Made by a program: the position numbers
NCBI GenBank assembly: GCA_036170915.1
Contig: JAVHQC010000004.1
Span: 1 to 64,000, forward strand
Origin: Cyanobacteria bacterium auto_48_18
GTDB taxonomy: Bacteria; Cyanobacteriota; Vampirovibrionia; Obscuribacterales; Obscuribacteraceae
Direction of reading: 5' to 3'
DNA length: 64,000 bases
Shown: positions 17,601 through 20,600 of the stretch, piece by piece
Position numbering within the stretch: position 1 is the stretch's first letter
Layout: each line of letters begins with the position of its first letter

Positions 17601-20600
17601 TCATGCGGGCTATGCGGCTGTCACCATCAATGGAGCAAATCACTTCTACTGCATTTTCAACCACTGCCCGTTCTTTGCGCAATGCTTCAGCTAGAGCACC
17701 AGCCATGGTGCGAAAGGTGCGATCAAGAAGGGCAATTTCGTCATTGTCGCCTTTGATGGGTGGATTTAACGGCTGGTCGGCCGCCAACTTTTTTGTATTG
17801 TCTACCAGCGCCGTTAGCCTTCTTGTGGTGCCGCGATTGTAGTAAGCAACCAGTAATAATGCCAATAGAATATTGAAGACCACAGCAGCGAATATCAGAG
17901 CTTTGACACCATTGCGATATTGTACCTGTGCCTCTTTTTTCGCCAGCTGAACTGCCTGTTGCTCTTCCACCAGCTGGTCTACAAGTTTGAAAATGCGATT
18001 GAGTGTGCGCTGCACATTCACCCATTTTTTCATCAGTTCAATTTTGTCGCCCGTGACCATGGGCTCATGCGTGCTGTTTAAGTCAACGATGGCGACCTGG
18101 TTGAGATTTTCTAGTTTGGCAAAAATTTCTCTTTCATGATCGTTGTTGCGCACCAGATATTTAAGCTGTTTTGCTTCGCTGTTGAAGACATCGATTAAAT
18201 GGCGATAGCGGCTATGCTGACTTTCTGATTCGGTCAAATAGGTGAGAATACTTGAAATCCCTGCGTCCAAAAGTAAACGCAAAAGCCCGTTGGCGTGCGT
18301 GGCGACGTCGCGGGCGTGAGCTTCGCGTGCTCGCTCTTGCTCGGCTTGCTCTAAGAGCGTGACTAGCCCAGCCACAAACAGCAGTTCAAACACGAGCGGC
18401 ACTGAGACAAGAATAATTGCCTTGCGCGAAAGAGTTAAATTGAAACGACTAGACATACACTTACTCAAGTGCGACCGGTCAATAGTAACTCACATTAGAG
18501 CTTGAGCGCTATGTTCGCGATGGGAGGGCTTAAGCTACCGGCGGCGTGAAAGCCCAAACCTGCTCGCCGAAGCGATTGGGGCTGAATGCTCTGGTTGAAG
18601 TTGAATGCGTCCAACGGCCGCTTTTTGAGACGTTGGCGTAAACCATTAACTTACCGTCGTCACGGCCATCTACGATACCTACATGGGCATTACCGCCACC
18701 TCTCATGGCGTTGGTGCCAGGTTTGACGCCATAAATTACATCACCCGGTTTGGCCGTGGACAATGGCACCTTGTCCCAGCCGCGGCGCTCCAGCTGAGCT
18801 ACTAAAGCTCCTGCGGACAATTCTTTTTTGATATCAAGACCTGCCCTTTCAAGCACTTTTGACGTGGATATGGCACAGCCAAGGCGGCCATTATTAGTGG
18901 CTGTTGCATGGTCGGTCCACAGCTTGCGGCCCTCTAATGCTCGCGCACTGGCTACAATGTTTTCTGCTACTGGTGATTCATTGCCCTTCTGTCCGTCGGT
19001 TACCCCGCTGAGTTTATTCAGGCAAGCGACCATGGCACTGTCGCTTTTGGCTATATTACCTTTGCCGCTGCCTGAGCCGGGCATAATTAGAAACTCGATT
19101 TCTTTCTTGTCTGTGCCCCCGCTATTTGGATTACCGCTCAATCCCAGTGCTCGGCACAAGGCTTGCGAACCCTCTCCGATTTTATTTTTTGGACCATGGT
19201 CACCAAATATTGCCGGCACCATTTTTCCGGTGCGTATATTGCGTACGAATGCCATATCGCCCAGTTTGATGCCCAATTTCTTGTACTCGTCGGTCATGGG
19301 TAGAACAAAATAATTGATGTCAGTGGCGTCTAAACTACTACCGTCGCTGTGTGTCAAGCTGGTGAAGGCCTGGCCAAAAGGATCGTTACGCCAATCTGGC
19401 CCACCATCAGCATCAACGGCCAATTTTGAGCGCAGATAAACCATGCCGTTTGGCAACATTGTTAATTTGTCGGCGGGCAAATTTTTTGCCTGGTCTAAGA
19501 TCTGCCTGGCATTGCTCTCCGAGACACCAGACGGCGCGCGACTGCGAACAAAATTTTCGCTGTTGTCGTCAGAAGATCGGTTATTTCTGGTTTCGCTATT
19601 TCTTTGCCTGGGTCTTGCAGTCGATTCATGGTCATCACTGGATGCTCTGCGTAAGCGACTGTGATGCCCTCTGTTATTTTCTGAGTGCTCTAAGCGAGGA
19701 GCTTGAACTTCCATTGCTTTTTGAGCTTCTTTCGGTTTAGACAGTTCATATTTGCCATTTTTGTCAACGGTGCCATCGAGGCAGAGTCTGGCTTTTTTAC
19801 CCTCTATTTCTAAAACCGCAATGCGTGTTTTGTTCTCAGTTGGTTTTTCTACAATTTCAAAATGACGTGTTTTGCCTTTGTCGTCTACTTGCGACAATTT
19901 TCTGTGATTGGCAGTGTATAGTTTGTGAGCCGCTTCCAGCCGCTCTTCAGGCTTGTGCCCTTTTTCAAAAAGTGTTTTTTGTAATGCTTTGTGGTCGACA
20001 ATTTCTACTTTCGGCAAATGCTTTTTTTCTTCATGATTATCATTTGCTTTGGCTGGTACATGGTTGCGCTTGCTGGAGAATAGGCTGTCATGCGCCAGGG
20101 CGTGGCTCGGCTGATCATGCGCTTTATCTTTATTAGATTGGGCGTCGCTAACGTGTTTCTTCTCGGCCGGCATTGTTTGATACCATTAACATTGTGGTGT
20201 GATAACTTTTAGTCTCGTAGAACCATATTAGGAAGACATTTTGTCAAACTTTTGGCAGCCGAAATTTTTGCTAAGTGCCGCGCTAGCGGTAGCTCTCGCT
20301 ATATGCACGGCATTTTCATTCGCCGTCGGCCCCATTGAAGCAAAGGCTCCTGAGCCTCGAACAAATGCAATTAGAGTCGTCTTTCCTAATGATGTCAGCT
20401 TAGGCAATCTCACCTTGCTCGATAAAAACTGGACCAATGGCGATGCGCATCCACGGGGGCCATCATTTGGCCAGGCCCGCGGCTCGTTGATTTTGCCGCC
20501 TGATAAAAGCTTGATGATCAGATTTTTCGACACTATAGAAGAGCATCTTGATGGCCTCAACAATCTGCCTAAAGACTCTGTGTCATGCCTTGATTTTGAA

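Follow-up and report, generated by a model that had tools for sequence, protein, structure and literature searches.

The window analysed here, the first 64,000 nucleotides of contig JAVHQC010000004.1 of Cyanobacteria bacterium auto_48_18 (genome of 4.94 Mb, 86% complete, 4131 genes by our own gene calling), carries on its minus strand the gene of P0001 (18530..20173), a 547-aa leader-bearing protein without a Sec signal which, from the gene call, Pfam, the structure model and Foldseek, is probably a bifunctional cell-wall hydrolase. In the AlphaFold2 model an unstructured stretch (residues 1-58) leads into a domain here called domain X, which a disordered linker joins to a GH75 barrel; a C-terminal domain closes the chain. 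The polar leader (residues 1-60; 19994..20173, minus strand) is predicted to be disordered (full-model pLDDT about 32, and neither of two models shows secondary structure) and ends in the LP beta-motif LPKVEIVD (residues 53-60; 19994..20017, minus strand), which follows the leader consensus and lies outside domain X in both models of P0001. The first-pass annotation had stated that LP is kept in GH75 homologues, and this is borne out: before residue 79 only M1, L53 and P54 are invariant in 23 homologues, the remainder of the leader being divergent. The one named close relative found is L041 (Candidatus Obscuribacter record), 73% identical across the N-terminal 324 aa of P0001; three remoter relatives have a different N-terminus, likewise non-Sec. 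A short and weak candidate amphipathic element some 25 residues N-terminal to the motif (20078..20107, minus strand) was picked out by Gibbs scores (416 against 377-400 in four shuffles, 316 against 293-309 in eight); as a second upstream motif of the leaders it was dropped, barely exceeding the shuffles.

Domain X (residues 61-145; 19739..19993, minus strand; pLDDT about 94) is modelled as two helices plus a five-stranded meander and falls outside Pfam families. Foldseek gave no match to its fold at E 0.001, the best PDB match had a Z of 4.3, and the ESM Atlas returned no usable match for residues 1-150 of P0001 or for P0038. Its layout resembles TY-chaperone folds as described in PMC9503650, and no such structure was among the top matches. 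The middle domain (19010..19468, minus strand) belongs to GH75 by a Pfam match above the cut-off (residues 264-373, E 3e-7, 31.2 bits against 27), a double-psi barrel and an Asp/Glu pair, D325 and E334, invariant in the homologues; V-Csn, a viral chitosanase, is a fold match to the barrel (Foldseek E 1.8e-8). The C-terminal domain (18539..18976, minus strand), with C433 and H497, is probably an NlpC/P60-type amidase, a weak assignment from Foldseek matches to Tse1/Tae amidases (E 6e-3 to 2e-2). P0001 is like V-Csn and the Tse1/Tae amidases in fold, in the conserved acidic pair and in the Cys-His amidase-like C-terminal domain, and differs from them in its missing Sec signal and in its fusion to domain X, otherwise found on peptidoglycan hydrolases. 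The earlier label of chitosanase holds for the Pfam family and the fold, but the domain partners point elsewhere: GH75 has its architecture in common with amidases and lysozymes, which suggests peptidoglycan rather than chitosan as the substrate.

Directly downstream of P0001 lies a gene for a PAS histidine kinase (16627..18468, minus strand), an order that is the same in L041, followed by an OmpR-type response regulator (15935..16630, minus strand). On the other side are a divergent gene for a signal-peptide LRR protein (20241..21236, plus strand) and a gene for an RHS plus M23-like protein that has a polar leader without the strict LP motif (21347..22903, minus strand). In six same-genus loci a similar RHS/M23-like gene, as judged by eye, is the immediate upstream neighbour of the GH75 gene. 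The LRR gene is missing beside most homologues, so that a role as immunity gene is not supported. More generally, an immunity-gene signal was absent from the neighbourhoods of our hand list of leader members in this genome (41 members, 38 families): signal-peptide neighbours were found at 15/41 against 1194/4090 other genes, and co-oriented ones at 3/41 against 619/4090. The 31 domain-X loci had no neighbour family in common, and a signal-peptide gene was upstream in four.

The first-pass annotation had proposed that the leader genes form their own regulon, beside OmpR-type regulators and with a shared 11-bp repeat box, and only the first half of this proposal replicates. An OmpR-type gene lies within three genes of 11/41 hand-listed members (181/4057 other genes) and of 5/23 genes with the strict motif (25/448), and in held-out genomes near 7/46 leader loci against one of 280 random 3-kb windows. 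A period of 11 bp is typical of OmpR/PhoB sites. The box precedes 4/41 hand-listed genes against 26/4090 in-sample; in held-out loci the excess was not confirmed (2/46 against 8/683, p 0.13), and the 64-kb window holds no exact copy, so that the P0001 gene itself lacks the box.

The leader consensus, [TS]A[E]K[HY]-LPxLx[IL]xD near residue 57, is an isolated hydrophobic island of the form Phi-P-x-Phi-x-Phi inside a tail predicted to be disordered. In this genome the pattern LP.[LIVF].[LIVF] falls within residues 40-95 in 23 of the 471 proteins with a polar N-terminus (shuffle mean 6.7, maximum 16), so the enrichment reported earlier stands, though it is partly generic: the same pattern is about 1.5-fold above shuffles in non-polar proteins (107/3445 against 70) and in internal windows (22 against 14.8), which leaves a true excess of about 13 of the 23. 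By eye, several strict-motif matches in this genome resemble ordinary enzymes. Scores of at least 8 bits were reached by 31 of 4131 N-termini and by none of 2125 internal windows, a comparison that is partly in-sample. About 30-40 members were recovered here, rather than the 82 first claimed.

The main test was a six-frame, position-blind search with a 36-row profile built from this genome alone, read out on the 56 rows from other genera among the 150 matches listed (74 weaker matches lay outside the list, and six rows in frames shorter than 100 aa were dropped). Among those listed, 39 of the 50 other-genus matches in frames of 100 aa or more were N-terminal, that is, at most 130 aa from the upstream stop, against a baseline of 31% of coding residues (p 1.6e-11). 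The 39 listed N-terminal matches represent 29 protein families, 25 of them without a member on the hand list of this genome; the motif sits at residues 49-77 (10-90% range), and polar flanks on both sides were found in 19/39 of these leaders compared with 0/324 internal LPxhxh occurrences. Three of the 39 (L173, L175, L200) look doubtful. New in-order matches of a second round were N-terminal in 16/16 cases, some of them non-independent.

For the range of the leader, families of the order Obscuribacterales (class Vampirovibrionia/Melainabacteria) are labelled f1 and f2. A second profile at E 1 matched 63/77 f1 genomes, 0/2 f2 genomes and 10/221 genomes of other orders, counts in which the f1 matches include training rows and the genomes from outside the order are smaller; of seven outside-order matches inspected, not one was a leader. 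When random DNA totalling 800 kb was sampled (four genomes, three other genera), the strict regex matched 0/86 polar proteins, about four being expected at the rate of this genome, and the PSSM matched one of 690 genes, with one further candidate by eye; for this test the sampling was too thin and the PSSM was overfitted (out-of-order control 0/340). Searched against a protein database, the leader profile gave four matches, since it carries too little information. As judged from the held-out matches, the leader is real and extends well past this genome, mainly in family f1. The first-pass description of a lineage-specific, non-Sec, export-like leader is thus well supported by the held-out N-terminal placement, the cargo and the restriction to f1; export itself we infer.

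Domain X offers a view of the same leaders through a profile from which the leader was omitted. With it, 1.84 billion proteins were searched and 215 clusters matched; leader counts refer to the 126 proteins with a full N-terminus out of the 150 clusters listed. Among these, the strict motif was present in 37 (1.1 in shuffles) and the loose motif in 51 (4.6 in shuffles). A hydrophobic N-terminus was found in 0/126 by a hydropathy rule, and the Tat motif RRxF in 0/126 and in 0/41 hand-listed members. The other 75 lack even the loose motif and have polar leaders of similar length, some with other end motifs; on these counts LP is one variant of a wider polar-leader class, marking 30-40% of it. 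A variant ending, h-x-F-x(2-4)-Y, occurs in 11/75 of the non-LP leaders against 1.8 expected, the pattern being derived from the same set, and was not enriched in this genome (14/282 against 9.2). By genome, domain X was found in 74/103 of f1 and 0/3 of f2.

Pfam matches were obtained for 26 of the 99 domain-X proteins scanned (GH75 17, DPBB 3, Amidase_3 2, tail lysozyme 2, VanY 1, GDSL 1), so that 25 of the 26 annotated ones are GH75, DPBB, Amidase_3, lysozyme or VanY. Among the first-round held-out matches 15/34 had a Pfam match: annexin in five, and one each of polysaccharide lyase, clostripain, calpain, GDSL plus GH5, DPBB, ChaN, EF-hand, I29, TPR and PDZ. Of 19 further matches six were annotated (calpain 2, annexin 2, SLT, LysM), and in this genome 10/40 hand-listed members, including lysozyme, LysM, esterases and EF-hands, the other 30 having no match. 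Some cargo frames are 1900-3400 aa long. Wall hydrolases, lipases, proteases and giants with annexin repeats make up most of the annotated cargo. Nearly all recognisable cargo is, by its predicted domains, of a kind that acts on walls, membranes or extracytoplasmic proteins, and most members are of unassigned function. Many members are small, low-complexity and outside known families.

The secretion machines of the order were then surveyed. The T3SS/flagellar gate FHIPEP was found in 1/107 genomes, this genome not being the one, T6SS VipB in 0/70, a phage sheath in 2/70 (not this genome) and WXG100 in 0/1 (this genome). This genome has two Tad-type ATPases/clusters, PilB/PilT, three secretins and two T4SS clusters. 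VirB4 is present in 106/107 genomes of the order and VirD4 in 76/79, the latter matching 0/221 genomes in other orders of the class (1e-15). The VirD4 locus has five core genes that are syntenic in 20/20 loci of other genera; cluster 2 has no coupling protein. The components found were VirB4, VirD4 and a PrgI/TraE-like protein; VirB7/9/10/11 were not found in the T4SS clusters, neither of which has a conserved VirB9 or VirB10, and four TrbI-like genes are scattered. A leader member inside the C33 T4SS cluster had been offered as a link to this machine, which does not survive: no homologue occurs in any of the 20 T4SS loci of other genera, so it is a lineage accident, and with 0 leader matches in these 20 loci the leader genes are unlinked to the T4SS. 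A thin link is that two small members carry a motif otherwise confined to a loop of the cluster-2 VirB6-like protein. The idea that a Sec-exported cluster-2 protein, C1_1960, shares the motif of the leaders was kept as a lead only (rank 16/875, homologue scores of -8 to +8). The positively charged T4SS C-terminal signal R-X7-R-X-R-X-R was found in 0/41 hand-listed and 0/126 domain-X proteins; BLAST found no C-terminal domain common to the members, and Pfam gave no XVIPCD-type match, no search with an XVIPCD profile being made. The predicted complex of the VirD4 core with the leader (score 0.00, mark 0.32) was uninformative either way.

A candidate receptor is TY-Chap1 (G000:C6:255180-255635), an acidic protein of 151 aa with a CesT/YbjN fold (match E 1.7e-10). 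It was found in 38/39 f1 genomes (57-93% identity), 0/1 f2 genome and 0/100 other genomes, a range that tracks leader and domain X more closely than VirD4 does, with few f2 genomes and as co-distribution among kin. A homologue, Tll0839, occurs in a photosynthetic cyanobacterium. The TY-Chap1 gene is unlinked, and the CesT profile PF05932 gave no match, nor did it match any control. T3SS chaperones are described as binding a beta-motif, Phi-(X1-4)-Phi-x-Phi, by extension of the chaperone sheet (PMC6114900); this permissive pattern fits 56/60 alignment rows, which were chosen for the motif. Other roles have been proposed for YbjN relatives, and for TY-chaperones elsewhere the handling of damaged proteins (PMC9503650). 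By analogy, TY-Chap1 is a tentative candidate for the leader receptor.

The leader is N-terminal, common to unrelated proteins, lineage-restricted and borne by enzymes with extracytoplasmic substrates. It is probably an export signal of some kind. In the explanation that we propose, its motif would pair as an extra beta-strand with a receptor in the cytoplasm, in the manner of T3SS effectors bound to class I chaperones, and the best candidate for that receptor, though less likely than not, is the conserved TY-Chap1; one of the two core chromosomal T4SS might then carry the loaded protein out in a single step, and the cargo might act on the walls and membranes of neighbour or prey cells, the last two steps being the weaker ones. 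Exit through a T4SS, taken alone, falls a little short of an even prospect, and so, in our judgement, does the explanation as a whole: a targeting signal, distinct from Sec, that serves a large repertoire of effectors and is read by strand pairing with a chaperone.

Of the rival readings the strongest, with a lesser but serious claim, is that the leader serves another export route (Tad, type IV pilus/secretin, vesicles or an unrecognised channel), the T4SS being for DNA exchange. The evidence for export serves it equally well, and this genome holds the two Tad ATPases, PilB/PilT and three secretins. In 13/20 genomes a PF13814 relaxase gene lies within the VirD4 locus, beside VirD4, which fits DNA transfer. 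Some genomes with VirD4 gave no leader match, namely the two of f2 and several small ones of f1, and in f2, where the T4SS is present, matches to leader, domain X and chaperone are all absent. Against this reading, what secretin routes export has normally reached the periplasm by Sec or Tat; the leader proteins carry neither signal, and cargo of 1900-3400 aa suits a one-step translocator.

Rather unlikely is a docking, holding or turnover signal inside the producer, the enzymes acting after lysis or on its own envelope. Such a role would agree with the proposed handling of damaged proteins by TY-chaperones in other systems (PMC9503650), with the lack of immunity genes found beside leader genes, with the many small, low-complexity members of no known family and with the OmpR/kinase adjacency, which suits a stress response. 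The 36 convincing held-out matches include no housekeeping cytoplasmic enzyme, and no other export signal was found in the 126 domain-X proteins. Nor is there a substrate in the cytoplasm for peptidoglycan hydrolases or for Ca-binding repeat proteins, which argues against an intracellular role.

Very unlikely is a reading in which the motif has no signal role and is what decay has left of a small N-terminal fold (a helical hairpin, then the LP strand) spread among proteins by shuffling. In about ten members helices do run into the LP strand, in a loose alignment with 13-25% identity, and on the domain-X tree, a quick tree of few columns, the leader label is clustered (23 changes against 40 when shuffled). 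Against a remnant, LP and the alternating hydrophobic residues are fixed while all flanks diverge, the motif is held near residue 57, with the range given above, and it occurs on 8/18 cargo clusters. Chance, joined to a general tendency for beta-strands to start after Leu-Pro, fits the generic 1.5-fold excess and the 0/86 of the random held-out DNA and is highly improbable, being refuted by the position-blind held-out placement (39/50 N-terminal); the partly in-sample 8-bit scores (0/2125 internal windows against 31/4131 N-termini) speak against it too.

An export tag read by a chaperone and leading to a T4SS, as proposed here, can be set beside several known systems. The beta-motif of T3SS class I chaperones (CesT-Tir, InvB-SipA; as described in PMC6114900) is alike in its disordered N-terminal region, its Phi-(X1-4)-Phi-x-Phi pattern and its unrelated cargo, and here too a chaperone-fold protein is present across the leader-bearing family f1; the differences are the export gate missing in 106/107 genomes, the near-invariant Pro, the unlinked chaperone gene and a chaperone that is only a candidate. 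The Xanthomonas X-T4SS (PMC6536674) is alike in being a chromosomal T4SS with VirD4 and in its dispersed wall-hydrolase genes with one recognition module. Its XVIPCD is described there as a C-terminal domain of about 120 aa, whereas the Obscuribacterales leader is short and N-terminal, and it is given 12 subunits and effector/immunity pairs, whereas the Obscuribacterales clusters are without VirB7/9/10/11 and no immunity pairing was found. On these comparisons the leader resembles a T3SS beta-motif or an XVIPCD tag in how it would work, yet belongs to neither class.

The core T4SS of Patescibacteria is likewise vertically kept, chromosomal and minimal (VirB4, PrgI/VirB3, VirB6, several VirB2-like pilins) and is thought to be co-opted for host contact; its clusters are described as mostly relaxase-free (PMC12102498), whereas Obscuribacterales have two clusters, one with a gene of the MOB_C type, as PF13814 is classed in PMC5357655. 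Vampirovibrio chlorellavorus, of the same class, has a predation model in which hydrolases are proposed to enter prey through a T4SS (PMC4451040). The system described there is a T-type conjugation system on plasmids, while the Obscuribacterales VirD4 is unmatched in the other orders at the threshold given above and no leader was found in other orders.

Our searches of the literature, in which coverage of subscription journals was thin, found no paper on the leader, domain X or the Obscuribacterales T4SS pair, and the leader is probably an undescribed export tag. Supplements of genome papers may already list Obscuribacterales T4SS genes. Obscuribacterales are uncultured, non-photosynthetic relatives of cyanobacteria; an export tag, if true, would reveal a hidden arsenal used against other cells, and as a sequence tag it allows the candidate secreted arsenal to be listed from genomes alone and makes it a testable question whether these bacteria attack other cells and which machine they would use. 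If a T4SS is indeed fed by an N-terminal signal that a chaperone reads, two export logics that are usually separate would be joined. A more speculative picture, on balance improbable, is of Obscuribacterales as unrecognised contact-dependent killers or predators in which a multicargo chaperone of T3SS type feeds dozens of hydrolases, proteases and annexin giants into a domesticated and minimal T4SS, without a T3SS or paired immunity genes. The analysis also brought out an order-wide pair of core T4SS, a new domain of 85 aa associated with wall hydrolases, and numerous enzymes that are still uncharacterised.

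Two minimal, chromosomal T4SS clusters were located in the genome under study, G000: cluster 1 at G000:C33:172085-196388 (stretches L001 and L002) and cluster 2 at G000:C1:1086-18165 (L004). Both are retained throughout the whole order. The VirD4 core is present as a single copy with 74-100% identity, and a search of 221 genomes of other orders gave no match to it. The clusters contain four near-identical genes for VirB2-like pilins and encode giant VirB6-like proteins of 1900-2000 aa. In 13 of 20 genomes, a MOB_C-type relaxase gene (PF13814) lies inside the VirD4 locus; in G000 it is found 16 kb from this locus (G000:C33:212167-213057; L003:12167-13054). 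This is possibly a domesticated chromosomal DNA-transfer system. Contig C17 carries a separate, small mobilisable module (L051:8856-13203) that contains relaxase-like genes and genes for coupling proteins.

A candidate receptor of the leader is TY-Chap1 (L340:1468-1920, reverse strand), a protein with a CesT/YbjN fold present in 38 of the 39 genomes of family f1 of the Obscuribacterales, a lineage without a T3SS. The motif WAxLExHTL occurs in one to three copies in each of two small leader proteins (L036:7233-7775, forward strand; L043:7623-8081, reverse strand) and was otherwise seen in a single place, a loop of the VirB6-like protein of cluster 2 (L004:7287-13010, forward strand). Matches to the small WAxLExHTL protein came from this genus alone, and this protein is a possible mimic or exclusion factor.

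Polar leaders with end motifs other than LP (LxFxxxxY, YRFSG, DLY), placed at the same position as the LP motif, were found in the proteins P0099, P0111, P0126 and P0153, and in C11_86315, C13_20709, C30_31690 and C36_132648 of G000; the cluster-1 exported protein family C33_174810 begins with RFxFxPNxY, resembling these ends. Other lineages may have tags of their own. In G107, a genome of another order (L106-L110), the polar N-termini of several proteins differ in style, and one of them has an SFKG-like end; the distant GH75 relatives P0024-P0026 carry a further distinct leader containing SFSPEA.

The leader-bearing cargo includes giant annexin-repeat proteins in frames of 1900-3400 aa (L154, L164, L171, L184, L207, L258); a relative in G000 (C5:28883-34894) has an FHA domain at its C-terminus. 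The sole immunity-like pairing observed was in one subfamily of domain X, the domain following the leader on wall hydrolases, in which a conserved signal-peptide gene lies immediately upstream on the same strand (L300, L301, L310, L312). Three Tad pseudopilin-like genes, recognised by eye on the reverse strand of the window (7537-10021), are distant from the Tad ATPase clusters; a Pfam scan of one of them gave no match.

In the upstream regions of G000, the GTCAC repeat with its 11-bp period precedes 30 genes, about half of which, judged by eye, encode polar effector-like N-termini absent from our hand-picked list of 41 leader members; the repeat may mark a regulon broader than the LP-motif set.
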